Of a stretch of 32,000 bases of DNA, positions 1 through 26,230 are shown piece after piece. The stretch's first letter is position 1; every line of letters begins with the position of its first letter. The notes beneath the pieces were generated by a model. That model was not told the origin of the DNA. It ran no database searches and saw nothing but the letters and a program-made list of their open reading frames with translations. This DNA is from Cylindrospermopsis raciborskii Cr2010 (lineage in GTDB: Bacteria; Cyanobacteriota; Cyanobacteriia; Cyanobacteriales; Nostocaceae): assembly GCF_003367075.2 (NCBI RefSeq), contig NZ_CP065936.1, positions 1,500,001 to 1,532,000 of the forward strand, given 5' to 3'. The position numbers and the translations under genes were made by a program.

Positions 1-122
1 GTTTCATCGTAGTCTCAAGATGATTCTTGAGAGGTTTGTCTACTCCACAAGCTATCTCGGTAGAGCTTACCTGGGAGTTATTTAGTCCAGGGGGACGCAC
101 TATTACCGTCATTCGCAGTTAG
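1..122 (+). other. 3'-terminal remnant (or divergent end) of a third NTPase/PD-(D/E)XK-nuclease paralog
   Basis: Codons 84-119 (SPGGRTITVIRS), the stop at 120-122 and the ~80 bp that follow match the 3' ends and downstream spacers of the full-length copies (2161-2202, 3858-3906). Upstream of ~84 the similarity fades, and the same frame has TGA at 21-23. It is therefore probably a remnant rather than an intact gene end. Confidence 0.4.
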
Positions 123-202
123 TCGCGAAGCACTGGGTACGCGAAATCGCCATTGTTGTTTAAATCATTAATGTTAGGTTTCCTAGCGTCAACCCAACCT
201 AC
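123..202 (+). repeat. Spacer repeat module R0 (tcgcgaagcactgggta..cgccattgttgtttaaatcattaatgtt.ggtttc...caacccaacctac)
   Basis: Aligns by eye with 2203-2280 and partly with 3907-3943, in each case directly after the stop codon of an NTPase-nuclease gene. It ends in a degenerate version of the gttgggttt...aacccaac hairpin. Confidence 0.7.
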
Positions 203-210
203 AAACTTAA

Positions 211-465
<255 letters not shown>

Positions 466-492
466 TAATTTAATAACCAATACTGGTAAATG

Positions 493-524
493 AAAAGCTC
501 CTCACCTGGTGGGGGGCTTTTTTT
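493..524 (+). terminator. Rho-independent terminator downstream of the psbA fragment
   Basis: aaaagctcctc-acctggt-ggggggcttttttt: a GC-rich stem (with G-U pairs) of ~7-9 bp and a short loop, followed by a run of 7 T. Confidence 0.6.
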
Positions 525-608
525 ATGGCGTATTATTTGAGTAATGCCATGAGTTGAGGGTGTTGGGTGCTGGTTTCAATGAAGATCCCTTATGAGCTGG
601 TCTATAGA

Positions 609-657
609 GGTTCTAGAATAAAATCGGTAAGGTTATTTTTAAAAACTCCTTCTCACC
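609..657 (+). promoter_or_regulatory. Conserved leader upstream of NTPase-nuclease copy 1, with a candidate -10 TAGAAT at 614-619
   Basis: ggttctagaataaa..g.taaggttattttt..aaaa.ctcc..caccATG is shared with 2313-2358. TAGAAT lies 36-39 nt upstream of each ATG. I found no convincing conserved -35. Confidence 0.3.
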
Positions 658-2202
658 ATGCCCAAACACTTTAATACTGCTGGTCCTTGCCAATCTGATA
701 TCCACTATATGCTCTCCCCAACGGTTCGACTACCGGATTTGAAAGCACTAATTGATGGTCGCAATTACTTTATCATTCATGCGCCGCGACAAGTAGGCAA
801 AACCACCGCTATGATAGCTCTAGCTCAAGAATTGACTGATAGTGGGGAATACACCGCCGTCATGCTCTCTGTGGAAGTAGGATCGGGATTTTCCCATAAT
901 CCCCAGCAAGCGGAGCAGGTTATTTTACAAGAATGGAAACAGGCAATTAAGTTTTACTTACCCAAAGAACTACAACCATCCTATTGGCCAGAGGGTGAAA
1001 CAGACTCAGGAATAGGCAAAACTTTAAGTGAGTGGTCTACCCAATCTCCAAGACCTCTTGTAATCTTTTTAGATGAAATAGATTCCCTGACAGATGAAGC
1101 TTTAATCTTTATTTTAAGACAATTACGTTCGGGTTTTCCCCGTCGTCCCCGGGCGTTTCCCCATTCGGTGGGGTTGATTGGTATGCGGGATGTGCGGGAC
1201 TATAAGGTTAAATCCGGTGGAAGTGAAAGACTTAATACTTCCAGTCCTTTCAATATCAAGGCTGAGTCTTTAACCCTCAGTAATTTTACTTTATCAGAAG
1301 TAGAAGAACTTTACTTACAACATACACAAGCTACAGGACAGGTGTTTACCCCGGAAGCCATCCATCAGGCATTTTATTTGACCGATGGACAACCGTGGTT
1401 AGTCAACGCCCTAGCTCGTCAAGCTACCCAGGTTTTGGTGAAAGACATTACCCAACCCATTACTGCTGAAGTCATTAACCGAGCCAAAGAAATTCTCATT
1501 CAGCGCCAGGATACTCATTTAGACAGCTTAGCAGAAAGATTACGGGAAGAGCGGGTCAAAACCATTATTGAACCAATTTTAGCAGGTGAAGATTTACCTG
1601 ATGTACCCCAGGATGATATTCGTTACGTCCTGGATTTAGGACTGTGTCGAGACCGAGGACAGGGTTTGGAAATTGCCAATCCAATTTATCGGGAAGTTCT
1701 ACCCTTGGTGTTAAGTTACACAACCAGAGCTTCCATTGGAGTTATTGAACCTCGTTGGTTAAATGAACAGGGGGAGCTATTACCCGATGAATTATTGGAA
1801 GCATTTCTGGAGTTTTGGCGACAACATGGGGAACCACTACTCAAAAGTGCGCCCTATCATGAAATCGCTCCCCATTTAGTGTTAATGGCATTTTTACATC
1901 GGGTGGTAAATGGTGGTGGTACGTTAGAACGGGAATATGCCATTGGTTCTGGAAGGATGGATATTTGTTTACGCTATGGCAAAGTGGTGATGGGCATAGA
2001 GTTAAAGGTGCGGAAAGAAAAGTTAGATCCCTTAACCAAGGGTTTGACCCAACTGGATAAATACTTGGGTGGGCTAGGATTGGATACAGGTTGGTTAGTG
2101 ATTTTTGATCGCCGTGCGGGATTACCACCCATGGGCGAGAGAATTAGTACGGAAGAGGTCATTAGTCCAGGGGGACGAACCATTACCGTTATTCGTAGTT
2201 AG
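658..2202 (+). CDS. P-loop NTPase (AAA/ORC-like) fused to a C-terminal PD-(D/E)XK-type nuclease domain, tandem copy 1
   Basis: 514-aa ORF. Walker A is HAPRQVGKTT and Walker B is LVIFLDEID. The C-terminus has TLEREY...GRMDICLRYGKVVMGIELKV (E...D-x13-ExK). The N-terminal FNTAGPC..IHYM signature is typical of a cyanobacterial 'AAA-like ATPase' family. Confidence 0.85.
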   Translation: MPKHFNTAGPCQSDIHYMLSPTVRLPDLKALIDGRNYFIIHAPRQVGKTTAMIALAQELTDSGEYTAVMLSVEVGSGFSHNPQQAEQVILQEWKQAIKFYLPKELQPSYWPEGETDSGIGKTLSEWSTQSPRPLVIFLDEIDSLTDEALIFILRQLRSGFPRRPRAFPHSVGLIGMRDVRDYKVKSGGSERLNTSSPFNIKAESLTLSNFTLSEVEELYLQHTQATGQVFTPEAIHQAFYLTDGQPWLVNALARQATQVLVKDITQPITAEVINRAKEILIQRQDTHLDSLAERLREERVKTIIEPILAGEDLPDVPQDDIRYVLDLGLCRDRGQGLEIANPIYREVLPLVLSYTTRASIGVIEPRWLNEQGELLPDELLEAFLEFWRQHGEPLLKSAPYHEIAPHLVLMAFLHRVVNGGGTLEREYAIGSGRMDICLRYGKVVMGIELKVRKEKLDPLTKGLTQLDKYLGGLGLDTGWLVIFDRRAGLPPMGERISTEEVISPGGRTITVIRS

Positions 2203-2307
2203 TCGCGAAGCACTGGGTATGCGTCGCCATTGTTGTTTAAATCATTAATGTTGGGTTTCATACTTCAACCCAACCTACGTTCATCTTATATTTAATTCCA
2301 CCCACCT
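2203..2307 (+). repeat. Spacer repeat module R1, whose right part (2250-2307) equals the right half of the MITE-like element
   Basis: 2203-2249 matches 123-170. 2250-2307 (gttgggtttcatacttcaacccaacctacgttcatcttatatttaattccacccacc) is near-identical to 25900-25957 and to the reverse complement of 17554-17611. Confidence 0.75.
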
Positions 2308-2312
2308 ACTTA

Positions 2313-2358
2313 GGTTCTAGAATAAAGTTGTTAAGGTTATTTTTTCAAAACCTCCACC
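2313..2358 (+). promoter_or_regulatory. Conserved leader upstream of NTPase-nuclease copy 2, with a candidate -10 TAGAAT at 2318-2323
   Basis: Same conserved leader as 609-657. Confidence 0.3.
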
Positions 2359-3906
2359 ATGCCCAAACACTTTAACACTGCTGGACCATGTAAAGCTAAC
2401 ATCCACTATATGCTCTCCCCCACCGCTCGCTTACCGGAGTTAAAAGCGCTAATTGATGGAGAAAATTACTTTATCATTCATGCGCCGCGACAAGTAGGCA
2501 AAACCACCGCTATGATAGCCCTCGCTCAAGAATTGACTGATAGTGGGGAATACACCGCCGTAATGCTCTCTGTGGAAGTAGGATCAGGATTTTCCCATAA
2601 TCCCCAGCAAGCGGAGCAGGTTATTTTACAAGAATGGAAACAGGCAATTAAGTTTTACTTACCCAAAGAACTACAACCATCCTATTGGCCAGAGAGTGAA
2701 ACAGACTCAGGAATAGGCAAAACTTTAAGTGAGTGGTCTACCCAATCTCCAAGACCTCTTGTAATCTTTTTAGATGAAATAGATTCCCTAACAGATGAAG
2801 CTTTAATCTTTATTTTAAGACAATTACGTTCAGGTTTTCCCCGTCGTCCCCGGGCGTTTCCCCATTCGGTGGGGTTGATTGGTATGCGGGATGTGCGGGA
2901 CTATAAGGTTAAATCCGGTGGAAGTAAAAGACTTAATACTTCCAGTCCTTTCAATATCAAGGCTGAGTCTTTAACCCTCAGTAATTTTACTTTATCAGAA
3001 GTAGAAGAACTTTACTTACAACATACGCAAGCTACGGGACAGGTGTTTACCCCGGAAGCCATCCATCAGGCATTTTATTTGACCGATGGACAACCGTGGT
3101 TAGTTAACGCCCTAGCTCGTCAAGCTACTCAGGTTTTAGTGAAAGATATCACCCAACCCATTACTGCTGAAGTGATTAACCAAGCCAAGGAAATTCTGAT
3201 TCGACGCCAGGATACCCATTTAGATAGCTTGGCAGAAAGATTACGGGAAGATAGGGTCAGGGACATTATTCAACCTATGTTAGCTGGTGAAGACTTAGCT
3301 GATACGCCAGAAGATAACTTACGATACGTGTTAGATCTGGGTTTATGCCGTCGCGATCGCGGGGGTGGACTGGAAATTGCTAACCCTATTTATCGAGAGA
3401 TTTTACCTAAAGCTTTAGCCTCCGTGGCGATCGCCTCTTTAACTTCGGTGGAACCCAACTGGTTAAACCCTGATGGCACACTCAACCCTCAAATCCTATT
3501 AGACTCTTTTTTGGAATTTTGGCGACAACATGGGGAACCACTGCTCAAAAGTGCGCCCTACCATGAGATTGCTCCCCATTTGGTATTAATGGCATTTTTG
3601 CATCGGGTAGTGAATGGTGGTGGTACGTTAGAACGAGAATATGCCATTGGTTCTGGGAGGATGGATATTTGTTTACGCTATGGCAAAGTAGTGATGGGCA
3701 TAGAGTTAAAGGTGCGGAAGGAAAAGTTAGATCCGTTAACCAAGGGTTTAACCCAACTGGATAAATACCTGGATGGGTTAGGATTAGATACAGGTTGGTT
3801 AGTGATTTTTGATCGCCGTGCGGGGTTACCACCCATGGGAGAGAGAATGAGTACGGAGGAAGCTATTAGTCCGGGGGGACGAACCATTACTGTCATTCGC
3901 AGTTAG
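2359..3906 (+). CDS. P-loop NTPase fused to a PD-(D/E)XK-type nuclease domain, tandem copy 2
   Basis: 515-aa ORF with the same motifs as copy 1. It is near-identical to copy 1 except at aa 12-35 and aa ~275-385. Confidence 0.85.
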   Translation: MPKHFNTAGPCKANIHYMLSPTARLPELKALIDGENYFIIHAPRQVGKTTAMIALAQELTDSGEYTAVMLSVEVGSGFSHNPQQAEQVILQEWKQAIKFYLPKELQPSYWPESETDSGIGKTLSEWSTQSPRPLVIFLDEIDSLTDEALIFILRQLRSGFPRRPRAFPHSVGLIGMRDVRDYKVKSGGSKRLNTSSPFNIKAESLTLSNFTLSEVEELYLQHTQATGQVFTPEAIHQAFYLTDGQPWLVNALARQATQVLVKDITQPITAEVINQAKEILIRRQDTHLDSLAERLREDRVRDIIQPMLAGEDLADTPEDNLRYVLDLGLCRRDRGGGLEIANPIYREILPKALASVAIASLTSVEPNWLNPDGTLNPQILLDSFLEFWRQHGEPLLKSAPYHEIAPHLVLMAFLHRVVNGGGTLEREYAIGSGRMDICLRYGKVVMGIELKVRKEKLDPLTKGLTQLDKYLDGLGLDTGWLVIFDRRAGLPPMGERMSTEEAISPGGRTITVIRS

Positions 3907-3943
3907 GGCGATTGCCATTGTTGTTTAAATAATTAATGTTGGA
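3907..3943 (+). repeat. Truncated spacer repeat module R2
   Basis: ggcgattgccattgttgtttaaataattaatgttgga matches the central part of R0/R1 and then breaks off. Confidence 0.55.
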
Positions 3944-3990
3944 TCTTCCCCCCATATCTAGGGACAGGGGCTAGATCGCCCCATTTATGC

Positions 3991-5007
3991 TTATCTACCA
4001 AAAACAGTGCTGAGAGAACGAGCTATATTTTGTGGTTGCATAGCATCTATTGCTGCAGTTGGTTCATAACCACAATGCACCATACAATCGGCACATTTAG
4101 GATTACCACTAGCGCGCCCATACTTACTCCAATCGGTTTGGTCTAGCAACTCTTGGAAAGTTTGATAATAACCTTCGTTTAATAGGTAACAGGGTTTTTG
4201 CCATCCCAAAACACTGTAACTGGGACTACCCCAAGGAGTACATTCATAGTCCTTCTCACCAATGAGAAAATCCAAAAACAGGGGGTTGTGATTGAAGTTC
4301 CAGTTTTTCTTTCCTGATTGATAGGGGGCGAGAATTTCTCGGAATAATGCTCTAGTTTGTTCCCTTTGTAAAAAGTGATCTTGGTCTGGAGCCCATTCAT
4401 AACTGTAACCGGGAGAAATCATCATCCCATCAACTTTCAAGGTTTCTAGAAAATCAAAGAACCCTTGCATTTCTTCTACATTACAACCGGTGAAAATAGT
4501 GGTGTTGGTTGTAACGCGAAAACCTTGGGATTTAGCAGCACGAATTGCCGCTACAGCAACATCAAACACTCCTTTTCTATCTACACAGTGATCATGCCAC
4601 TCTTTCATTCCATCTAAATGAACACTAAAGGTAAGATAGGGAGATGGTTTGAACTTATGCAGGCTCTTTTCTAAAAGCAATCCGTTGGTACATAAGTATA
4701 CGTATTTTTTACGATCTACTAAACCCTGGACAATTTGATCAATTTGTGGGTGTAATAGGGGTTCTCCTCCCGGAATGGAAACTACTGGTGCACCACATTC
4801 TTCCACTGCTGCAAAACACTGCTCTGGTGACAAGTTTTGTTTAAGAACTTCCGTGGGATGCTGGATTTTTCCACACCCTGAACAGGCTAAGTTACAACGA
4901 AACAGTGGTTCTAACATCAAAACTAAAGGGAAGCGTTTTTTTCCTGATAGACGTTGTTTGAATAGGTACTTCCCAATATCCATCGCTTGTTGCAGATTAA
5001 TTGCCAT
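3991..5007 (-). CDS. hpnH: Adenosyl-hopene transferase, hopanoid-biosynthesis radical SAM protein HpnH
   Basis: 338 aa. The radical-SAM Cys triad is in [16 protein letters not shown]. Long stretches match HpnH as I remember it ([49 protein letters not shown]). Confidence 0.85.
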
Positions 5008-8443: not shown

Positions 8444-9214
8444 ATGAATGCCAGAACTTCTCAAAGTCTCAATCATTCGGGTTCTCAAATATTAGGTCAC
8501 ATTCACTCACTAGAAACCTGTGGTACGGTGGATGGTCCAGGTATAAGATTTGTCGTTTTCACCCAAGGCTGTTTATTAAGATGTTTGTATTGTCACAATC
8601 CTGACACCCGTGACATGAAAACAGGAAAAGAAATAACTGTAGGAGAACTAGTCACAGAAATAGAAAAATATAGGTCCTACATGAAATTTACTGGTGGGGG
8701 AGTTACCATTAGTGGTGGTGAACCCCTATTACAACCGGAATTTGTCCGAGAGGTTTTTCGTCAGTGTCAAAAATTAAACATTCATACTGCCTTAGATACT
8801 TCTGGATTTCCCGATTTAACCACCTCCAAGTCCGTACTAGAATTTGTAGACCTAGTTTTATTAGACATCAAGTCTTTTGATCCTAACACCTATCTTCATG
8901 TTACGGGAGTTTCCATCGAACCAACCTTGAGATTTGCCGAATATTTACAGGAGATTAATAAGCCAACATGGGTAAGATTTGTTCTAGTTCCCCATGTGAC
9001 AGATGGTAATGAAAACGTCCATCAACTAGCAAAGTTTGTATCCCAATTAAACAATGTGGAAAAAGTAGAAATTTTACCTTTTCACAAATTAGGTGAATAC
9101 AAATGGCATGAACTAGGATATCACTATGAACTTGGGAATACTATTCCTCCTAGTCTGGAAGAAATAGAGAAAGTCAAAGATATTTTCAAGCACTATGGAG
9201 TTAAGGTGGAATGA
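8444..9214 (+). CDS. pflA: Pyruvate formate-lyase activating enzyme (glycyl-radical activase, radical SAM)
   Basis: 256 aa. GPGIRFVVFTQGCLLRCLYCHNPDT carries the CxxxCxxC cluster and the family's N-terminal signature. The gene is adjacent to pflB. Confidence 0.92.
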   Translation: MNARTSQSLNHSGSQILGHIHSLETCGTVDGPGIRFVVFTQGCLLRCLYCHNPDTRDMKTGKEITVGELVTEIEKYRSYMKFTGGGVTISGGEPLLQPEFVREVFRQCQKLNIHTALDTSGFPDLTTSKSVLEFVDLVLLDIKSFDPNTYLHVTGVSIEPTLRFAEYLQEINKPTWVRFVLVPHVTDGNENVHQLAKFVSQLNNVEKVEILPFHKLGEYKWHELGYHYELGNTIPPSLEEIEKVKDIFKHYGVKVE

Positions 9215-9310
9215 ATCGGATTTTTAAAAACAAATCAAGTAACTGACACCCAATTTTCCATACCTAAGTTGACAACCTATATAGCTCATAAATTTACTAA
9301 AATTACCACC

Positions 9311-11929
9311 ATGTATACAACCCAAAAAACTACAAACCCAGTCAAAACTTCAGAAGATCTACAAATTCTCATTCAAGAGGTTAAAACAGCTCAAGCCAAA
9401 TATGCCGAATATACCCAAGAACGGGTAGATCACATTTTTAAACAAGCTGCTCGTGCTGCTAATGCGGGGAGAATACCCCTGGCCAAAATGGCAGTAGAAG
9501 AGACAGGAATGGGGGTTGTAGAAGATAAAGTAATTAAGAACCACTTTGCCTCCGAATATATCTACAACAAATACAAAAATGAAAAAACCTGTGGCATTAT
9601 CGAAGATGATAAACAGTTTGGAATTCAGCGAATTGCCGAACCTGTGGGCATATTAGCAGGGATTGTACCCACTACCAACCCCACCTCAACTGCTATTTTT
9701 AAAGCCTTACTGGCTCTTAAAACCCGTAATGGGATAATCTTTTCACCCCATCCTCGTGCCAAAAAATGCACAATTGAAGCGGCCAAAATAGTTCTGGATG
9801 CTGCAGTAGCAGCTGGAGCTCCTGCAGGAATTATTGGATGGATTGATGAACCAACAGTAGCATTATCACAACAGTTAATGCAGCATCCACAGATAAATTT
9901 AATTCTAGCCACTGGTGGACCTGCAATGGTTCGTGCAGCTTATTCTTCAGGTCATGCTTCCTTGGGTGTGGGTTCGGGTAATACCCCAGCAGTAATTGAT
10001 GAAACTGCCCATATTAAAATGGCAGTCTCTTCAATTTTGATTAGCAAGACTTTTGACAATGGCATGATTTGTGCTAGTGAGCAATCCGTAATAGTTTTAG
10101 ATGATGTTTACGAAGATGTGCGACAAGAATTTTTTAGCCGTGGTGCTTACTTCTTAAATGACCTAGAAAAGCAAAAGATTAGAGATTTAATTTTCATTAA
10201 TGGTCGGTTAAATCCAGAAATAGTTGGTCAATCTGTGGCCAAATTGGCTCAAATGTCTGGACTAGATATAGCTAAAGAAGCTAAAGTTTTAATTGCAGAA
10301 GTAGATGAAGTGGGCACCCAGGAACCATTATCTTATGAGAAACTTTCCCCCATTTTAGCTATGTACCGAGCCAAAAATTTTCTGGAAGCTGTAACTATAG
10401 CTGAAAAATTAATTGAGTTTGCTGGAATGGGACACACCTCTGTCCTTTATACAGCACCAGAAAGACGAGATAGAATTACGGAGTTTGAAAATACCCTGCG
10501 CACTAGTCGAGTGTTAGTTAATACGCCTTCATCTCAAGGTGCAATTGGTGATTTATATAACTTTCGTCTTGATCCCTCCCTTACTTTAGGGTGTGGTAGT
10601 TGGGGAAACAATTCCGTTAGTGATAATGTTGGTCCCCGTCACCTGATCAACATCAAAACTGTAACGGAAAGACGGGAGAACATGTTATGGTTTCGAGTTC
10701 CCCCAAAAGTATATTTCAAATATGGTTGTTTACCAGTTGCACTAGGGGACTTAAGAGGGAAAAGTCGGGCTTTGATTATTACAGATCAACCATTATTTGA
10801 ATTGGGAATCGCAACTAAAGTCAGCAGCGTACTGGAAGAAATTGGCATTAAGACCCAGGTGTTTTGTGATGTGGAACCTGATCCATCTTTAACTACGATT
10901 CATAAAGGACTAGCTCAAACTAATGGTTTTCAACCAGATGTAATTATTGCAGTTGGTGGTGGTTCCCCAATGGATGCAGCTAAGGTGATCTGGTTAATGT
11001 ATGAACATCCAGAAACGGAATTTGATGGGTTAGCGATGCGGTTTATGGATATTCGCAAACGAGTATACGAACTACCTAGCTTGGGACAAAAAGCCATATT
11101 TGTCGCCATTCCAACCACATCAGGAACCGGTTCAGAAGTGACACCATTTGCAGTGGTGACGGATGATCGAACGGGGATCAAATACCCTTTAGCTGATTAT
11201 GCACTAACTCCTAGTATGGCAATTGTGGATCCGGAATTAGTGCTAAATATGCCTAAGTCACTAACAGCTTATGGTGGAATTGACGCGCTGACTCATGCTC
11301 TTGAATCCTATGTTTCTATCTGCGCTTCTGAATACACTAAGGGATTGGCTTTAGAAGCAATTCGACTACTGTTTAAATACTTACCATCTGCATATAAAAA
11401 TGGAGTTAAAGATACTAAAGCTAGAGAAAAAGTTCATTATGCAGCTACAATAGCTGGCATGTCGTTTGCAAATGCTTTTTTGGGTATATGTCATTCCCTT
11501 GCCCATCAACTAGGTGCCCGATTCCATGTTCCCCATGGGTTGGCTAATGCTTTGATGATTTCCCATGTGATTCGCTACAATGCAACCGATGCACCTTTTA
11601 AACAGGCTATTTTTCCCCAATATGAATATCCAAATGCCAAGTGGCGCTATGCCAAAATTGCAGACCACTTACATTTGGGAGGTGCTACGGAAGATGAGAA
11701 GGTAGATCTATTAATTGCTGCTGTGGAAAAACTGAAACAGGATGTGGAGATTCCAGCAACTATTAAGGATGTGATTAAAACCGATGAAAAAACTTTCTAC
11801 GAGAAATTAGAAATAATGGCTGAGCAAGCATTTGATGATCAATGTACAGGTGCTAATCCCCGTTATCCACTGATTAGTGATTTACAGGATTTGTATATCA
11901 AGGCCTATTGGGGAAATTTGGGTCAATAA
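9311..11929 (+). CDS. adhE: Bifunctional acetaldehyde-CoA dehydrogenase / alcohol dehydrogenase AdhE
   Basis: About 872 aa counted from the ATG at 9311; the track ORF starts at a TTG at 9269. Long near-identities to E. coli AdhE as remembered include IPLAKMAV, EDKVIKNHFASEYIYN, GIVPTTNPTSTAIFK, LTLGCGSWGGN-like, GGGSPMDAAK and DDQCTGANPRYPLIS. Confidence 0.93.
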   Translation: MYTTQKTTNPVKTSEDLQILIQEVKTAQAKYAEYTQERVDHIFKQAARAANAGRIPLAKMAVEETGMGVVEDKVIKNHFASEYIYNKYKNEKTCGIIEDDKQFGIQRIAEPVGILAGIVPTTNPTSTAIFKALLALKTRNGIIFSPHPRAKKCTIEAAKIVLDAAVAAGAPAGIIGWIDEPTVALSQQLMQHPQINLILATGGPAMVRAAYSSGHASLGVGSGNTPAVIDETAHIKMAVSSILISKTFDNGMICASEQSVIVLDDVYEDVRQEFFSRGAYFLNDLEKQKIRDLIFINGRLNPEIVGQSVAKLAQMSGLDIAKEAKVLIAEVDEVGTQEPLSYEKLSPILAMYRAKNFLEAVTIAEKLIEFAGMGHTSVLYTAPERRDRITEFENTLRTSRVLVNTPSSQGAIGDLYNFRLDPSLTLGCGSWGNNSVSDNVGPRHLINIKTVTERRENMLWFRVPPKVYFKYGCLPVALGDLRGKSRALIITDQPLFELGIATKVSSVLEEIGIKTQVFCDVEPDPSLTTIHKGLAQTNGFQPDVIIAVGGGSPMDAAKVIWLMYEHPETEFDGLAMRFMDIRKRVYELPSLGQKAIFVAIPTTSGTGSEVTPFAVVTDDRTGIKYPLADYALTPSMAIVDPELVLNMPKSLTAYGGIDALTHALESYVSICASEYTKGLALEAIRLLFKYLPSAYKNGVKDTKAREKVHYAATIAGMSFANAFLGICHSLAHQLGARFHVPHGLANALMISHVIRYNATDAPFKQAIFPQYEYPNAKWRYAKIADHLHLGGATEDEKVDLLIAAVEKLKQDVEIPATIKDVIKTDEKTFYEKLEIMAEQAFDDQCTGANPRYPLISDLQDLYIKAYWGNLGQ

Positions 11930-11969
11930 ATAAAGAAGGGAAATGGGGAATATGTGAGAATTGAATTAG

Positions 11970-14264
11970 ATGACATTGGAGGTAATTATGATAGCAAATG
12001 TAGAACATTCAACGCAAAATATATCCGACAGTAATTTACATCCACAGTGGCAAGATTTTTGTGGTGGTAACTGGGATGAACAAATTAATGTTCGGGATTT
12101 TATTCAATGTAATTATCAACCCTATACGGGAGATGATAGCTTTTTAACTGCTCCAACTGAACGCACTCAGAAATTATGGACTATGGTCTGTGATTTGATG
12201 AAATTAGAGCGAGAAAAAGGAATCTTAGATGCTGATACTAAAGTGCCATCAAATATTGTTTCTCATGCTCCCGGTTATATTGATTCTCATCTAGAGCAGA
12301 TTGTGGGGTTACAAACGGAAAAACCCCTAAAACGAGCTATTATGCCTTTTGGTGGTATTCGGGTGGTAAAAAACTCCTTAGAATCCTACGGTTATCACCT
12401 TGATGCTCAAACGGAAGAAACATTCACAAAATATCGTAAAACCCATAATGATGGTGTTTTTGACGGTTACACCCAAGAAATGAAATTGGCTAGACATTCT
12501 GGGATTATTACTGGATTACCAGATGCTTATGGGAGAGGAAGAATTATTGGTGATTATCGTCGGGTAGCATTGTATGGAGTTGATCGGTTAATTCTGGATA
12601 AAAAAGAACAGTTAGCCTCATTAGAATCAGATGATATGCTAGAGTCTACAATTAGACTACATGAGGAACTTGTTGAGCAAATTCGAGCCTTAACAGAATT
12701 GAAAGTTATGGCTAATAGCCACGGATTTGATATTAGTTTACCTGCTGCTAGTGCTAAGGAAGCTGTACAGTGGACATACTTTGCTTATTTGGGTGCTGTT
12801 AAAGAACAAAATGGTGCAGCTATGTCCTTGGGTAGGGTTTCTACATTCCTAGATATCTACTTTCATCGCGATTTAAAAAATGGGATTCTGACAGAATCTG
12901 AAGCTCAGGAAATCATCGATCATTTTGTAATTAAACTGCGCATGGTAAGGTTTTTAAGAACGCCTGAATATAATCAATTATTCTCCGGTGATCCCACCTG
13001 GGTAACAGAATGTATTGGTGGAATGGGTGAAGATGGTAGGACTCTGGTGACAAAAAGTAGTTTCCGATTTCTCCACACCTTATCTAATTTAGGCACTGCA
13101 CCAGAACCAAATTTAACTATCTTGTGGTCACAGGATTTGCCGATTAATTTTAAACATTTTTGCACCAAGGTATCTATTAACAGCAGTTCCATTCAGTACG
13201 AAAATGATGATCTCATGCGCCCAGAATATGGGGATGATTATGGCATTGCTTGCTGTGTTTCTGCCATGAAAATTGGTAAACAAATGCAATTTTTTGGAGC
13301 TCGTGCCAACTTAGCTAAGGCTTTATTATATGCTATTAATGGTGGTAAAGATGAAAAAACTGGGCAGTTAATTGTTGCAGGTTTTGATGCCATTACTTCA
13401 GAATATTTGGATTACTCAGAAGTAGTAGATAAGTTTGATAAAATTATGAACTGGTTGGCTAGGTTATATGTAAACACGCTCAATGTGATTCACTATATGC
13501 ACGATAAATACTGTTATGAACGTTTGGAAATGGCGTTACATGATCGTGATATTTATCGAACCTTGGCTTGTGGAATTGCTGGCTTATCCGTAGTAGTAGA
13601 TTCCCTTTCAGCAATTAAATATGCCAAAGTCAAGGTAATTCGAGATGAAAAAGGCTTGGCAATAGATTATGCTATTGAGGGGAATTATCCTCAGTTTGGT
13701 AATAATGACCATCAAGTTGACGAAATAGCTGTCAATCTTGTTCGCAGTTTTATGGATAAACTGCGTCAACAAAAAACCTATCGTCAAGCAGTACCAACCC
13801 AATCAATTTTAACAATTACCTCCAATGTGGTTTATGGCAAAATAACTGGTAACACCCCTGATGGGAGAAAAGCTGGCGAACCTTTTGCTCCCGGAGCAAA
13901 TCCCCTACATGGTAGAGATACAAAAGGAGCGATCGCATCTTTAGAATCCGTAGCCAAACTTCCTTATCAACACGCTCAAGATGGAATTTCTTACACTTTT
14001 TCTATTGTTCCCAATGCTTTAGGTAAAAATTCCCAAGACAAAATTAATAATCTACGAGGAATGCTGGATGCTTATTTCTATAATGGTGGTCATCATATCA
14101 ATGTCAACGTTCTAGACCAAGATATACTTGTTGATGCTATGGAACATCCAGAAAAATATCCTCAACTGACAATTCGTGTTTCTGGATATGCTGTAAATTT
14201 CATTAAGTTAACTCGGGAACAGCAATTAGATGTGATTAAACGGACATTCCACAAAAGCATTTAA
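11970..14264 (+). CDS. pflB: Formate C-acetyltransferase (pyruvate formate-lyase) PflB
   Basis: 764 aa. An alternative start ATG at 11988 is preceded by GGAGG. The glycyl-radical motif is TIRVSGYAV, the active-site Cys pair is in IACCVS, and [16 protein letters not shown] is present. Similarity to E. coli PflB is very high throughout. Confidence 0.95.
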
Positions 14265-14780: not shown

Positions 14781-17549
14781 ATGGAAACATCTATACCCTT
14801 GAGATTAGATAAAGCATCTGATATATTGCGCACTGAGAAAACTAGTGCACTGGATGGGATCTTTGCACCCCAAACCGTAGCAGTTATTGGTGCAAGTGAA
14901 AAACCTGGGAGTGTGGGTAGAACCTTGTTATGGAACTTAATTACCAATCCATTCAATGGTACAGTTTTCCCCATTAATCCCCATCGTCACAGTGTATTGG
15001 GTATAAAAGCCTATCCAACAATTTTTGATATTTCCGAAAAAATTGACCTAGCTGTAATTGCTACTCCTGCACCCACAGTGCCAAAAATTATTGCCGACTG
15101 CGTGCAAGCTGGAATCAAAGGAGCAATTATTATTTCTGCTGGTTTTAAGGAAGCAGGTGAAAAAGGAATTGCTTTAGAGAAAGAAATATTATCTGTAGCA
15201 CAGGGAGGAAAGATCAGAATTATTGGACCAAACTGTTTAGGAATGATGAATCCCATTTCTGGTTTAAACGCCACCTTTGCTAGTAAAATGGCCCAACCAG
15301 GGAGTGTGGGTTTTCTGAGTCAAAGTGGTGCATTATGCACATCAATTTTGGACTGGAGTTTACAGGAAAATGTAGGTTTTAGCGCCTTTGTTTCCCTAGG
15401 TTCAATGTTAGATATTAGTTGGGGAGACTTAATTTATTATCTAGGAGACGATCCCCACACTAAAAGTATAGTTATTTATATGGAATCTATTGGTAATGCT
15501 CGTTCTTTTTTATCAGCAGCACGGGAAGTAGCATTAACCAAACCAATTATAGTAATTAAAGCAGGTCGTACAGCAGCAGCAGCAAAAGCAGCAGCTTCCC
15601 ATACGGGTTCATTAGCAGGAAGTGATGCGGTTTTAGATGCAGCATTTAAAAGATGTGGAGTATTAAGGGTTAATAGTATTTCTGATTTATTTGATATGTC
15701 AGAAGTATTAGCAAAACAACCTTATCCTCAAGGTCCTAGATTAACCATTCTCACCAATGCGGGTGGACCGGGAGTATTAGCGACGGACTCATTGATAGAA
15801 AGTGGGGGAGAACTAGCAGCAATTTCTCCCCAAACTATGGAAAATTTAAATCATATATTACCTCCCCAATGGAGTCATAATAACCCCATAGATATTTTGG
15901 GAGATGCGGATCCACAACGTTATACAAAAGCCTTAGAAATTGCCAGTAAGGATACCAATAGTGATGGTTTATTAGTAATTTTGACTCCTCAAGCTATGAC
16001 TGATCCCACCAAGATTGCTGAGGAATTAAAGCCCTATTCTCAAATGCAGGACAAACCTATTTTAGCCAGTTGGATGGGTGGAGAGGATATTGCAGAAGGG
16101 CAAAAAATTCTCAACCTTGAGGGGATTCCCACATATTCCTATCCTGATACTGCTGCTAGGATATTTAGTTATATGTGGCGCTATAGTTATAACTTAAAGG
16201 GTATTTATGAAACCCCCGTATTACCCGCATTGGAATGTGATAGTAATACTCGCAATTGTGGTTTAGTGACAACTATTATTGCAGAAGCTAGAAAAGCGGG
16301 AAGAACAATTTTAACTGAATTTGAATCCAAGGAAATTTTAGCAGCTTATGGCATTCCAGTAGTGGGAGGAACCATTGCCAAAAGTGCACAAGAAGCGATA
16401 GAATGGGCGGAAAAAATTGGCTATCCTGTAGTATTAAAATTGTATTCCCATACAATTACCCATAAAACGGATGTGGGGGGAGTTCAGTTAAATTTAAGAA
16501 ATGCTGAATCAGTAAAAAAAGCCTATCATTTTATAGAAACCTCAGTTTTAGAAAAAGCTAGACCAGAGGATTTTTTAGGTGTAACCGTACAACCCATGGT
16601 CAAAACTAATGGGTATGAATTAATTATTGGTAGTAGTCTGGATCCCCAATTTGGTCCAGTATTATTATTTGGCACCGGAGGACAATTGGTAGAAGTCTTT
16701 CAAGATAGTTCTATTGCTCTACCACCCCTAAATACCACCCTAGCACGTCGGATGATGGAGCAGACTAAAATTTATCAAGCTTTAAGGGGGGTCAGGGGTA
16801 GACAAAGTATTGATATGCAAGCTTTAGAGGAACTGTTAGTAGTCTTTAGTCATTTGGTAGTAGAACAACCGTGGATTAAAGAAATAGATATTAATCCTTT
16901 ATTAGCAATTCCCCCCACACCCGATCATCCAGGTGGTTTAATCGCATTAGATGGCAGAATAGTATTACATCCAGCTGAGATGGAAGAGCAGCAATTACCT
17001 AAATTAGCAATTCGTCCCTATCCCCATCAATATGTGTCCAATTGGAGATTGAAAAATGGTAGGGAGGTGATTATTCGTCCTATTCGTCCTGAGGATGAAC
17101 CATTGATGGTCAAATTTCATCACACATTATCGGAAGAAACTATTTATTTTCGTTATTTTCATCTAATCAAATTAAGTCAAAGAGTTACCCATGAAAGACT
17201 GACCAGGATCTGTTTTATTGATTATGACCGGGAAATGGCCTTAATTGCTGAACAGGAAGACCCACATACTCAACAGAAGGAAATTTTAGCAGTAGGAAGA
17301 TTAAGTAAATTACATGGTAGTAATAGTGCGGAATTTGCCATGCTGGTCACTGATGGTTACCAGCGCAACGGGTTAGGTACAGAAATTCTCACAAGGTTAA
17401 TGGAAATAGCCAAGAATGAGAAAATATCTGTGATTTTTGCTGAGATCCTAGCAGAAAATATAGCCATGCAGAAGGTATGTCAAAACTTGGGTTTTGAGAT
17501 TTTTCCAACTGAGGATGGAACTATCTTGAAAGCAGAAATCTATCTATAA
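14781..17549 (+). CDS. ADP-forming acetyl-CoA synthetase-like (CoA-binding + ATP-grasp) fused to a C-terminal GNAT acetyltransferase (Acd/Pat-type)
   Basis: 922 aa. The CoA-binding N-terminus is [14 protein letters not shown]. The phosphohistidine-loop motif is [11 protein letters not shown]. An ATP-grasp region is present (GYPVVLKL...HKTDVGGV). The C-terminal GNAT motif is [10 protein letters not shown]. Confidence 0.8.
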
Positions 17550-17550
17550 C

Positions 17551-17660
17551 TGGGTGGGTAGAATTAAATATAAGATGAACGTAGGTTGGGTTGAAGTATG
17601 AAACCCAACGCCCGCATGGGTCTCGTTCCTCCACCCATCCTACAAATAATTGTGCCTCCC
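17551..17660 (-). mobile_element. MITE-like dispersed repeat, full-length copy M1 (inverted relative to M2)
   Basis: The reverse complement aligns end to end with 25848-25960. The first 28 nt are identical, as is the core acccatgcggg.gttgggtttcatacttcaacccaacctacgtt.atcttatatttaattc. It has imperfect terminal inverted repeats (GGGAGGCACAATTA... / ...TAATTCTACCCACCCA) and two internal hairpins. It starts 1-2 nt after the acd stop codon. Confidence 0.6.
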
Positions 17661-25847: not shown

Positions 25848-25960
25848 GGGGAGGCACAATTATTTGTAGGATGGGTTAGCGGTAGGTAACCCATGCGGGT
25901 GTTGGGTTTCATACTTCAACCCAACCTACGTTGATCTTATATTTAATTCCGCTCACCCAC
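25848..25960 (+). mobile_element. MITE-like dispersed repeat, full-length copy M2
   Basis: See M1. It contains the hairpins atgggt...acccat and gttgggtt-tcatacttc-aacccaac. The central loop segment differs between the copies. Confidence 0.6.
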
Positions 25961-26230
25961 TTACATTGACTCAATGTAAATAAATTACTAAAGTAATTGC
26001 ATCTGACTCAAGTATGAAAATATTACTTCCTGAAATAATTCTTGAAGTATAAGCTTGAGGATTGTGACCTTTGATATAATTTGCCAGAGTGGCTAAAAAA
26101 AACCAAAAAACATAGTATTCTACATATCATCACAATTGTTTTCCTATTAAATCAAGACTTCTCTTGAATGGCTAAATCTTTCACCTAAGAATTTAGACCA
26201 ATATCCGACCAAAATAATATCAGGGTTATT

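Follow-up and report, generated by a model that had tools for sequence, protein, structure and literature searches.

Near the start of the 32,000-nucleotide stretch of Cylindrospermopsis raciborskii DNA analysed here (the window), two head-to-tail genes lie on the + strand, copy 1 at 658..2202 (514 aa), encoding a CyrO-family protein with AAA+, winged-helix-like and PD-(D/E)XK parts, and copy 2 at 2359..3906 (515 aa), encoding a second member of the family. ORF calling yielded the same paralogs, with ATGs 1701 bp apart, as a first-pass annotation of this DNA. The copy 1 protein has an exact match in C. raciborskii CP073250.1 and that of copy 2 in C. raciborskii G7 (CP195152.1), where the tandem pair is present too, and the pair is kept at one locus in three strains. 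The GC content of the family genes is higher than that of the surrounding genome, as also found for the gene in PMC3922686.

Upstream of the pair is the 3′-end relic of a third family copy, its last 13 codons plus stop, at 82..122 (+; translation SPGGRTITVIRS before the stop). This remnant, already suspected, is real and starts at 82; it matches the 3′ ends of further copies at 90–98% identity. Strain G7 (L082) carries it too; CP073250.1 (L081) does not. The region 3′ of the relic (123..267, +) runs into a psbA upstream region, and window positions 82-267 match L085(-) 10753-10568 at 97% identity; at that site in L085, psbA comes after a family gene. There follows a psbA (D1) 3′ fragment (279..465, +; last 55 codons and stop at 298-465). 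In L084 the family gene P0008 is immediately preceded by a 360-aa Photo_RC gene, whose 3′ end shares 96% identity with this fragment; scanned against Pfam by itself, the 55-aa piece gave no match. The terminator-like hairpin and T-run of this fragment (498..516, +) are colinear with the psbA–family junction in L084. A conserved stretch just ahead of copy 1 (606..657, +), 87% identical to 2312-2349, lies in a 91% match to the upstream region of P0008. The spacer between the copies (2203..2358, +) is made up of a shared motif at 2226-2252, a 64-nt dispersed repeat at 2249-2312 and the copy 2 upstream region at 2312-2358. The motif, GCCATTGTTGTTTAAATCATTAATGTT, occurs three times in the window against none expected by chance, the other occurrences being at 149-175 and, in the region downstream of copy 2 (3907..3982, +), at 3914-3940, followed there by a terminator-like hairpin at 3967-3982.

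Both Walker motifs named in the first-pass annotation are present in copy 1, Walker A (HAPRQVGKTT) at aa 41-50 (778..807, +) and Walker B (LVIFLDEID) at aa 134-142 (1057..1083, +), with G47, K48, T49, T50, D139 and E140 invariant across 86 homologues. The full-length AF2 model (pLDDT 86, pTM 0.82) has AAA+ ATPases with a winged helix as its top PDB folds: Foldseek ranked the archaeal AAA+ proteins 2fna and 2qen best (E 2.6e-10 and 9.2e-10), with ORC/Cdc6, RuvB and RFC next, the top set having E values of 1e-10 to 1e-7 over ~380 columns. Motif conservation and the fold model place a PD-(D/E)XK-type nuclease domain at the C-terminus (1810..2199, + in copy 1), with motif residues E426 (1933-1935), D435 (1960-1962) and E448-x-K450 (1999-2007, all +) that are 90–100% conserved in the 86 homologues. 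The E...D...ExK arrangement described earlier is present, its spacing being D435-x12-E448-x-K450 and not x13. The model of this domain (pLDDT 89) shows an a-b-b-b-a-b core, for which the best folds, EcoT38I, DdmD nuclease, BamHI and FokI, are marginal (best E = 1.3e-3, TM ~0.45). Pfam matches of the domain to NucS_C and PDDEXK_9 were sub-threshold, the latter in 6 of the 86 members, and the ATPase_2 model was touched by two. The initially proposed fusion of an NTPase with a PD-(D/E)XK nuclease is borne out by the AF2 model, the AAA+ folds, the conserved motif and the marginal restriction-enzyme folds, and the predictions support a family protein that starts with an AAA+ ATPase of the ORC/Cdc6-RFC-RuvB/archaeal type (base and lid), continues with a winged-helix-like module and ends in a PD-(D/E)XK-type nuclease whose E...D...ExK site is intact.

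Aligned as proteins, the two copies differ at 46 columns: six fall in aa 12-35, two in aa 36-274 (positions 113 and 190), 35, including one codon indel, in aa 275-383, and three in aa 385-514, which reproduces the block-wise counts first made by hand. DNA identity along the gene is 81% at nt 1-105, 97.8% at 106-822, 87.9% at 823-888, 58.7% at 889-1152 and 91.9% at 1153-1548. That such a mosaic is not uniform divergence after duplication, as originally argued, is confirmed by the uneven distribution of synonymous differences across segments (chi-square p = 2e-25) and by four runs without differences of 93–108 nt, all longer than the 99.9th percentile (88 nt) of permutations in which the differences were placed at random 10,000 times. 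The dS of the pair is ~0.09 in the ATPase tract and 0.41 in the nuclease, and is saturated in the variable block (pS above 0.75). The ATPase tract (gene nt 106-822), at 763..1479 (+) in copy 1 and 2464-3180 (+) in copy 2, has been homogenised recently; the nuclease part reflects older exchange or common descent, with strong purifying selection, and the aa 297-384 blocks are drawn from two different ancient, conserved module types.

Comparison across the family distinguishes two variable modules. V1 (aa 61-135; 838..1062, + in copy 1) has the top family entropy and consists of two helices inserted between strand 2 and the strand that bears Walker B (model helices 82-100 and 119-129), with four main types in Cylindrospermopsis. 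It is nearly identical between copies 1 and 2; since aa 76-135 are the most variable region of the family and yet hardly differ in this pair, the sharp localisation of differences reflects which segments chanced to be exchanged here. V2, by contrast, is of type 1 in copy 1 (aa 297-384; 1546..1809, +) and of type 3 in copy 2 (aa 297-385; 3247..3513, +), the two being 58.7% identical in DNA and 63% in amino acids; in copy 1 it is modelled as a winged-helix-like unit, a long helix and a loop (elements H298-309, H318-327, E330-332, E337-339). The V2 of copy 1 is 100% identical in amino acids to those of P0001 and P0003, and that of copy 2 to that of P0023, with 93–95% identity to P0005 and P0032. 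P0023, however, shares only 80% identity with copy 2 in the ATPase segment, while P0006, which shares a genome with copy 1, is identical to that copy apart from a 77%-identical ATPase segment. In Cylindrospermopsis, 11 of the 12 combinations of V1 and V2 types were found, and distances in V1 correlate little with those in V2 (r = 0.17) as against those in the middle segment (0.73). Judged from these sequences, V1 and V2 occur as a few discrete old types under purifying selection, reassorted almost freely across Cylindrospermopsis.

Gene conversion, one of the two causes of the mosaic offered in the first-pass annotation, is thus borne out by tract-wise dS, identity runs and blocks matching other paralogs, and the block mosaic is a product of recombination and gene conversion between the numerous paralogs that the genome carries. 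The other cause, in which a hypervariable specificity segment located between ATPase lid and nuclease would be under positive (diversifying) selection, is quite improbable. It would fit the concentration of the pair's amino acid differences in aa 297-384, the family's highest pN/pS (0.6–0.72) in that block and in aa 80-125, and the upkeep of several discrete types side by side, which could reflect selection for diversity. Nonetheless, windowed pN/pS among 13 paralogs (20-codon windows) peaks at 0.72 and reaches 1 nowhere, values within each block type are mostly 0.04–0.19, the blocks of copies 1 and 2 recur unchanged in P0001 and P0003 and in P0023 respectively, and V1 is almost identical in the pair. 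Moreover, the saturated synonymous sites indicate that the block is old rather than fast-evolving. As a cause of the pair's pattern, diversifying selection is largely refuted by the saturated dS, low pN/pS and identical blocks elsewhere. The first-pass annotation had also paired two signs that would speak against its reading, elevated dS in the block and a conserved single-copy housekeeping family: the first was found, whereas the family is clearly multi-copy.

The CyrO family runs to thousands of proteins, found in cyanobacteria, myxobacteria and further phyla, with members in Pseudanabaena, Prochlorothrix, myxobacteria and Desulfobacterales; each family search gave >8000 close matches, and there are 5180 clusters at 50% identity. 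Cylindrospermopsis and Pseudanabaena members are 70% identical, and identity to those of myxobacteria is 47–50%. Conservation this strong is unusual in an immune sensor, a point against a conflict role. At least 12 copies are present in one Cylindrospermopsis genome, among them an array of at least eight genes whose spacers are of two unrelated types, both unlike this window's, and tandem arrays also occur in Pseudanabaena, Synechococcales and Desulfobacteraceae. The family already bears the name CyrO: proteins so named (P0009, P0029, P0036) are 76–86% identical to copy 1 along their entire ~515 aa, and NCBI calls two of them (P0009, P0029) 'polyketide biosynthesis operon protein CyrO'. In C. 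raciborskii AWT205 and CS-505 the cyr cluster has a family member at its 3′ end, and a regulatory role was proposed for CyrO from weak AAA and WD-repeat similarity (PMC2885083, PMC3922686). That CyrO is a transcriptional or chaperone-like regulator of cylindrospermopsin biosynthesis is nonetheless scarcely credible, since the gene is retained in the non-toxic CS-509 and is absent from or unlinked to the cyr clusters of other producers (PMC3922686, PMC5834425), and since copy number, the long array and occurrence in organisms from Pseudanabaena and Prochlorothrix to myxobacteria and Desulfobacterales all tell against it; a conserved nuclease active site would be unexpected in such a regulator. 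The annotation as a cylindrospermopsin regulator was given without evidence. The cyr-linked CyrO belongs to the same protein family as the window genes, which, unlike it, do not adjoin a cyr cluster, and its published role as a putative regulator carries no mention of a nuclease domain, multi-copy arrays or mosaic structure.

Genomic neighbourhoods of the family are varied, and no conserved partner gene was found in those compared. In Pseudanabaena, a 2.67-kb unit comprising ~165 bp with a palindrome, a family gene and, ~27 bp after its stop codon, a Xer-like tyrosine recombinase gene is repeated at 82–88% identity within and between genomes, with unrelated flanks; family genes are also embedded there between a PT-DNA restriction-like HNH gene and dndCDE (dnd operon). 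Both associations, with dnd genes and with the integrase, are limited to the Pseudanabaena lineage. One family copy adjoins DISARM and NACHT genes on a plasmid and another HicAB, IS1 and a type IIG R-M gene; many copies, this pair included, lie among housekeeping genes without defence neighbours. The phage collections searched held no family copy, and PADLOC models gave no match.

On this evidence, we consider the adjacent genes to be CyrO-family ATPase-nuclease genes, mosaic by paralog exchange, for which a self-contained, mobilome-spread conflict (defence) gene is the most likely identity, held with about even confidence. Their function is most likely that of a putative stand-alone ATP-dependent DNA nuclease of the defence/mobilome class, a defence role being plausible from genomic context. 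A selfish mobile-element gene, in which ATPase and nuclease belong to the propagation or addiction machinery of an element and not to host defence, is unlikely but the strongest competitor. The protein might then select or cleave targets in concert with a tyrosine recombinase, or serve as a homing or addiction nuclease, with copy number and arrays resulting from its own spread. The recurrent Pseudanabaena unit agrees with this, as do the many family matches on very short contigs (as with repeats), the raised GC content, solo copies inserted between unrelated housekeeping genes and the existence of truncated relics, and high cross-phylum conservation suggests horizontal spread. However, neither a recombinase nor a transposase is a consistent neighbour of family genes outside Pseudanabaena, Cylindrospermopsis copies have no common termini, the pair is stable at its locus in three strains, and all array members are intact, diverged and under purifying selection, unlike decaying element copies. 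Very improbable is a housekeeping role in DNA repair or recombination, with a RuvB-like motor and a resolvase-like nuclease possibly tied functionally to psbA loci: although RuvB is among the fold matches and C. raciborskii family genes repeatedly flank psbA copies, with a psbA fragment preceding copy 1, the distribution is patchy at 1 to at least 12 copies per genome, copies occur on plasmids, and the psbA linkage, absent from the neighbourhoods outside Cylindrospermopsis, is more simply co-duplication of repeated DNA.

In the proposed mechanism, V1, which in the modelled fold sits where initiator-type AAA+ proteins carry a DNA-contacting motif, and the winged-helix-like V2 would, from their fold positions, jointly recognise a target in the DNA. 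Cutting by the nuclease would be licensed through assembly or remodelling powered by ATP binding or hydrolysis, and reassorted paralogs in arrays would offer a range of specificities. Among known systems, the archaeal SSO1545 (2fna), PAB2304 (2qen) and Pfam ATPase_2 proteins share the AAA+ base, lid and C-terminal helical/winged-helix part, although SSO1545 and PAB2304 are 13–14% identical to the family and have no nuclease domain; such ATPases are multi-copy and of unknown function. Orc1/Cdc6 proteins (2qby and 7jgr among the top folds) likewise have AAA+ followed by a winged helix, and in them both an AAA+ core insertion and the winged helix contact DNA. V1 and V2 occupy matching positions in the model, V1 probably being the counterpart of the initiator-specific motif; no sequence-level match to Orc1/Cdc6 was found, and these are, unlike the family, single-copy essential genes without a nuclease. 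PF09820 (AAA-ATPase_like) plus PF08011 (PDDEXK_9) proteins of Bacteroidota and archaea also join a P-loop ATPase to a small PD-(D/E)XK domain and have many paralogs per genome and unknown function, but a PF09820 search of the family gave no match, so by the models used they are not the same family. The type IV system McrBC follows a similar logic, an AAA+ motor coupled to a PD-(D/E)XK nuclease that acts on DNA and has no cognate methyltransferase; in fold, the family's C-terminal domain also matches McrC weakly (E = 0.11). McrB and McrC are, however, separate subunits and McrB a GTPase with its own DNA-reading domain, unlike the single-polypeptide family, for which neither PADLOC nor Pfam matched McrB or McrC. 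Finally, V1 and V2 types reassorted among tandem and dispersed paralogs recall the shuffling of target-recognition domains between hsdS paralogs of type I R-M systems, and the mosaic NLR gene clusters of plants, a likeness of evolutionary pattern between unrelated proteins in which a specificity role of V1/V2 is putative. No recombinase or inverted-repeat switch occurs in this window; like hsdS, the family carries two variable modules with conserved segments between them.

The two head-to-tail open reading frames on the plus strand of the window, at 658–2202 (copy 1, 514 aa) and 2359–3906 (copy 2, 515 aa), were borne out, as was the clustering of the amino acid differences between them reported in the first-pass annotation, whose counts match ours: the 46 differing columns of the protein alignment include six within aa 12–35, two within aa 36–274, 35 (one codon indel counted) at aa 275–383 and three within aa 385–514. 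In the DNA, the copies are 81% identical over gene nt 1–105, 97.8% over nt 106–822, 87.9% over nt 823–888, 58.7% over nt 889–1152 and 91.9% over nt 1153–1548, with four difference-free runs of 93–108 nt, longer than the 99.9th percentile for random placement (88 nt). Synonymous change is heterogeneous across the pair (p = 2e-25). Nei–Gojobori estimates of dS and dN are 0.09 and 0.004 at aa 36–274, and 0.41 and 0.010 at aa 385–515; at aa 275–384 dS is saturated (pS above 0.75) and dN is 0.26. Given this saturation and heterogeneity, the variable block must be old, not fast-evolving.

Both versions of the block recur among homologous family proteins (P numbers). That of copy 2 (aa 297–384) is 100% identical to P0023 and 93–95% identical to P0005 and P0032, that of copy 1 recurs at 100% identity in P0001 and P0003 and at about 90% in a dozen further paralogs, and a third block type is present in P0007–9 and P0029. 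P0023 agrees with copy 2 at both termini and in the block, with an ATPase segment just 80% identical, and P0006, a dispersed paralog from the genome of copy 1, is the same as copy 1 apart from an ATPase segment at 77%. It follows from these comparisons that the ATPase tract of the window pair was homogenised in this lineage, a state common to three strains. We regard segment exchange among paralogs as a highly probable explanation of the mosaic. Across the family, variability peaks at aa 76–135, not in the block first singled out, and this peak region is nearly identical between copy 1 and copy 2.

Diversifying selection on the hypervariable segment, also put forward in the first-pass annotation, is not supported, with dS saturated in the block and pN/pS below 1 everywhere checked. 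No 20-codon window reached a pN/pS of 1 across the coding sequences of 13 distinct Cylindrospermopsis and Raphidiopsis paralogs, the maxima being 0.72 at aa 110–125 and about 0.6 at aa 345–374. Inside a single module type, pN/pS was 0.04–0.19 for all pairs but one, and below 1 for every pair, so that the variable regions resolve into discrete module types, each of them conserved. Purifying selection acts on every copy. In 37 Cylindrospermopsis/Raphidiopsis proteins, four main types of the module at aa 61–135 (V1) and three of the module at aa 297–384 (V2) could be distinguished, and 11 of the 12 V1–V2 combinations occur. Pairwise V1 and V2 distances are almost uncorrelated (r = 0.17); V1 distances follow the adjacent conserved segment (r = 0.73), and those of V2 are uncoupled from all segments. 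As read from these sequence comparisons, the pattern is one of reassortment by recombination, not of diversifying point substitution, and what is new here is that two sets of conserved modules have been reassorted, in nearly every combination, across large paralog arrays.

The structural reading proposed earlier, an NTPase fused to a PD-(D/E)XK nuclease, was largely right: the ATPase site is confirmed, and a nuclease identity is likely for the C-terminal domain, from a conserved motif and marginal fold matches to its model. Pfam yielded weak P-loop matches alone for the pair (AAA_35, AAA, AAA_22, AAA_16), plus sub-threshold NucS_C and PDDEXK_9; AAA_22 and AAA_16 were matched by 86 of 86 family members and NPHP3_N, weakly, by six. 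The Walker A/B residues G47, K48, T49, T50, D139 and E140 are invariant in the 86 homologues, and invariant arginines occur at R157, R163 and R180. An AlphaFold model from the same homologues (pLDDT 86, pTM 0.82) is laid out as an AAA+ base with a two-helix insertion (V1), a lid, V2 and the C-terminal domain. Its P-loop core strands lie at 37–41, 66–71, 134–139, 170–174 and 201–206, followed by the lid helices; the V1 helices (82–100 and 119–129) sit between strand 2 and the Walker B strand, and V2 consists of a helix–helix–hairpin unit (298–339), then a long helix and loop. Foldseek matched the model to AAA+ structures with probability 1.00, the best PDB folds being the archaeal AAA+ ATPases 2fna and 2qen, then ORC/Cdc6, RuvB and RFC, over about 380 columns. 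ORC and Cdc6 thus rank among the top fold matches without a sequence match to the Orc1/Cdc6 clade, and neither single-sequence nor profile searches of PDB sequences found a solved structure related by sequence below E = 0.3. We hold the overall architecture (AAA+, winged-helix-like and PD-(D/E)XK-type) with good confidence. The segment at copy 1 aa 176–201 (window about 1183–1260; RDVRDYKxxSGGxxRLxTSSPFNIK) is nearly invariant from cyanobacteria to myxobacteria, coincides with the lowest-confidence part of the model (pLDDT 50–63) and may be a functional loop. P0242, a metagenomic representative of 993 aa, about twice the normal length and with two matched stretches, may represent two tandem copies joined into one or possess a much extended N-terminus.

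In the C-terminal domain, E426 and K450 never vary in 86 sequences from cyanobacteria to myxobacteria, and D435 and E448 reach at least 90% conservation. The model places D435 on strand 433–440 and E448/K450 on strand 443–452, and the (E)...D...(D/E)xK arrangement of the PD-(D/E)XK superfamily is present, with a spacing of D-x12-ExK in place of the x13 first noted (the sole slip in that reading). Modelled alone (pLDDT 89), the domain has an α-β-β-β-α-β core with fold matches of marginal significance to EcoT38I, the DdmD nuclease, BamHI, FokI, MspJI, Cap4 and McrC. No curated nuclease model was matched above threshold (NucS_C, 16.5–19.4 bits against a cutoff of 24; PDDEXK_9, about 12 bits against 25.5), and only six of the 86 members gave E below 0.01 for either.

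Copy 1 is 76–86% identical, at 100% query coverage and E below 1e-260, to three proteins named CyrO in their sources (P0009, P0029 and P0036), and the closest database proteins are annotated as 'AAA family ATPase', 'ATP-binding protein' or 'polyketide biosynthesis operon protein CyrO'. In the literature CyrO is a hypothetical regulator, on the basis of weak similarity; a non-toxic strain retains it, and other producers lack it (PMC2885083, PMC3922686, PMC5834425). The family is already named, and its annotation is probably wrong: described since 2008 as putatively regulating cylindrospermopsin synthesis, CyrO appears here as one copy of a multi-copy ATPase–nuclease family without relation to toxin production, which would correct a long-standing mis-annotation. 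A 2020 survey of conflict systems makes no mention of the family (PMC7159879), and nothing relevant to it was found in the literature on AAA_35 and PF14516.

Each of two homologue searches returned at least 8000 matches, and among 50%-identity representatives, searched exhaustively, 5180 clusters matched with an E-value of 1e-3 or lower and 776 with one of 1e-30 or lower. The family is represented in Nostocales, Pseudanabaena, Prochlorothrix, Synechococcales, myxobacteria, Desulfobacterales, Chloroflexota and others, and cyanobacterial megaplasmids carry it as well; no member was found in INPHARED phages or IMG/VR contigs, which were searched for a phage origin. Its members number in the thousands across cyanobacteria, myxobacteria and further phyla, and the family accounts for about 0.5% of a small Cylindrospermopsis genome. 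In C. raciborskii CP091284.1, at least eight intact family genes (512–518 aa, 79–97% identical) stand head-to-tail in locus L088 (CP091284.1:238169–249710), eight being a lower bound as the array continues past the end of that locus, and the spacers are of two unrelated types, of 41–58 bp and 63 bp. With two psbA-adjacent copies, one solo copy among housekeeping genes and the orthologue of the window pair, this genome holds at least 12 family copies. Tandem arrays of family genes were also found in other lineages. Common element termini around the Cylindrospermopsis copies were rejected, since a downstream motif occurs in a subset only and the array of at least eight genes has two other spacer types.

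Upstream of copy 1, window 82–657 is what remains of a family gene–psbA–family gene arrangement. At 97% identity, window 82–267 matches the 3′ terminal part of a family gene situated ahead of psbA elsewhere, together with the sequence following that gene. The third-copy relic recognized in the first-pass annotation is upheld, window 82–122 translating as SPGGRTITVIRS*. Directly upstream of copy 1, window 279–532 corresponds to the last 187 nt of psbA and its terminator (96% identity), and from 606 onward the window is colinear with the psbA-linked copy P0008, most of psbA and of the upstream family copy having been lost by deletion. A Pfam scan of the 55-aa psbA fragment gave nothing, and the fragment was identified through its DNA match to annotated psbA genes. 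At other C. raciborskii loci family genes interleave with complete psbA genes, as psbA–family–psbA or, in inverted orientation, family–psbA. The region is polymorphic among strains: compared with window 1–401, C. raciborskii CP073250.1 has a 237-bp segment carrying a fragment of a Uma2-like (PD-(D/E)XK) reading frame (L081:9508–9745); at this site the window and strain G7 instead carry 1.2 kb, the family relic included. The breakpoint, window 402, falls within the psbA fragment.

Downstream of the pair lie hopanoid-associated and housekeeping genes, and the pair itself is outside any defence island. Farther on, at window 8444–14264, are genes for a pyruvate formate-lyase activating enzyme, a bifunctional aldehyde/alcohol dehydrogenase and pyruvate formate-lyase (identities from Pfam annotation of the matching locus L081), which are unrelated to the finding. 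GC content is 0.43–0.46 over the family genes (window 1–4000) and 0.35–0.42 in the rest of the window, in agreement with a published remark that cyrO exceeds its flanks in GC. An Rfam scan of window 1–4100 found no RNA family, and a promoter/terminator scan did not exceed shuffle expectation save for the terminator of the psbA fragment and one hairpin after copy 2. A dispersed, MITE-like repeat of 64–90 nt, beginning with the hairpin GTTGGGTT...AACCCAAC, is present at window 2249–2312 and 25874–25963 (plus strand) and 17547–17636 (minus strand), and also at L090:17928–17991; two inverted copies flank about 8.2 kb of the window (17.6–25.9 kb). An attC-like site at this hairpin (about 2250–2275) was rejected: attC calls for RYYYAAC ... 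GTTRRRY in that order downstream of a gene, plus an IntI-type integrase, and here the boxes are in reverse order and the hairpin lies within the dispersed repeat.

Elsewhere, family genes occur in diverse surroundings. Clustering of all flanking reading frames from 80 loci revealed no conserved partner gene, histidine kinases and the like recurring just as generic families. In Pseudanabaena, a sharply bounded 2.67-kb unit (82–88% identity) recurs with unrelated flanks within and between genomes and comprises about 165 bp with a palindrome, a family gene and a gene for an Xer-like tyrosine recombinase; it behaves like a mobile unit. Its loci, in Pseudanabaena and Phormidium tenue, are L012:5834–8510, L045, L014, L008, L019 and L005, the last with a second, inverted recombinase copy upstream. 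The left edge lies about 165 bp upstream, with the palindrome GCAAATAATCATCAATTATTTGC, the 313-aa recombinase starts about 27 bp past the family-gene stop codon, and its own stop codon forms the right edge. An integron cassette was rejected, this Xer-like recombinase scoring 38 bits against an integron-integrase cutoff of 265. Also in Pseudanabaena, one to three tandem family genes with operon-like spacing stand amid dnd genes, in the order dnd-associated protein 4 and a PT-DNA restriction-like HNH gene, family gene(s), dndC–dndD–dndE, all on the same strand with gaps of 39–49 bp (L026:3928–13285, L009, L015, L016, L020). In single instances, one family copy adjoins DISARM and NACHT genes and another HicAB, IS1 and a type IIG R-M gene. 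The locus of P0006 (L083), with IS1 copies, HicAB, an integrase fragment and a type IIG R-M gene, also carries downstream of P0006 (6610–6851) what is left of the 5′ part of a gene resembling copy 2, at 96% identity to window 2350–2484.

These contexts, each lineage-restricted, seem consistent with a defence/mobilome gene class. The suggestion that the pair is a conflict or defence module was not backed by PADLOC-DB v2, in which neither protein gave a significant match (best E 0.006–0.03), the sub-significant ones (PDC-S01, LmuA) spanning the P-loop region only. With the dnd, DISARM and R-M neighbours on one side and this result on the other, we put forward a defence role tentatively, at somewhat short of even chances. 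A primarily selfish role, in which the genes would serve chiefly their own spread, has the recombinase-bearing Pseudanabaena unit to recommend it and appears unlikely.

A single polypeptide combines an intact ATPase site with a conserved nuclease-type site and has no obligatory partner. V1 and V2 probably occupy the positions at which proteins of the initiator-type AAA+ group touch DNA, and on that basis would jointly read a DNA target; ATP-dependent assembly would then license cutting, and the arrays would supply a repertoire. The fullest form of this proposal, which we consider improbable as it stands, is that CyrO arrays provide filamentous and social bacteria with an innate immune repertoire diversified by recombination: every paralog would be an ATP-dependent endonuclease complete in itself, its target read by V1 and V2 together, and gene conversion between copies, tandem or dispersed, would reassort a few conserved module types into many specificities. 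If the reassorting modules do set DNA specificity, the arrays would amount to a natural combinatorial library of ATP-dependent nucleases and an example of bacterial repertoire building via gene conversion. The idea lends itself to direct testing, since nature already supplies chimeras: between copy 1 and copy 2 essentially V2 alone differs, and between copy 1 and P0006 essentially the ATPase/V1 segment alone.

Compared with known systems, the family is a variation on the theme of ATPase–nuclease conflict genes and no new category. STAND/NLR-like NTPases (Avs, bNACHT) differ from it: Pfam and the model revealed no NACHT or NB-ARC match and no repeat domain, and the family protein, of about 515 aa, ends in the nuclease-type domain without a large C-terminal repeat sensor. 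Were the repertoire reading true, the arrays would form a bacterial parallel to the shuffling of target-recognition domains in HsdS or to the NLR clusters of plants, with the difference that in CyrO the single polypeptide also bears the motor and the nuclease.
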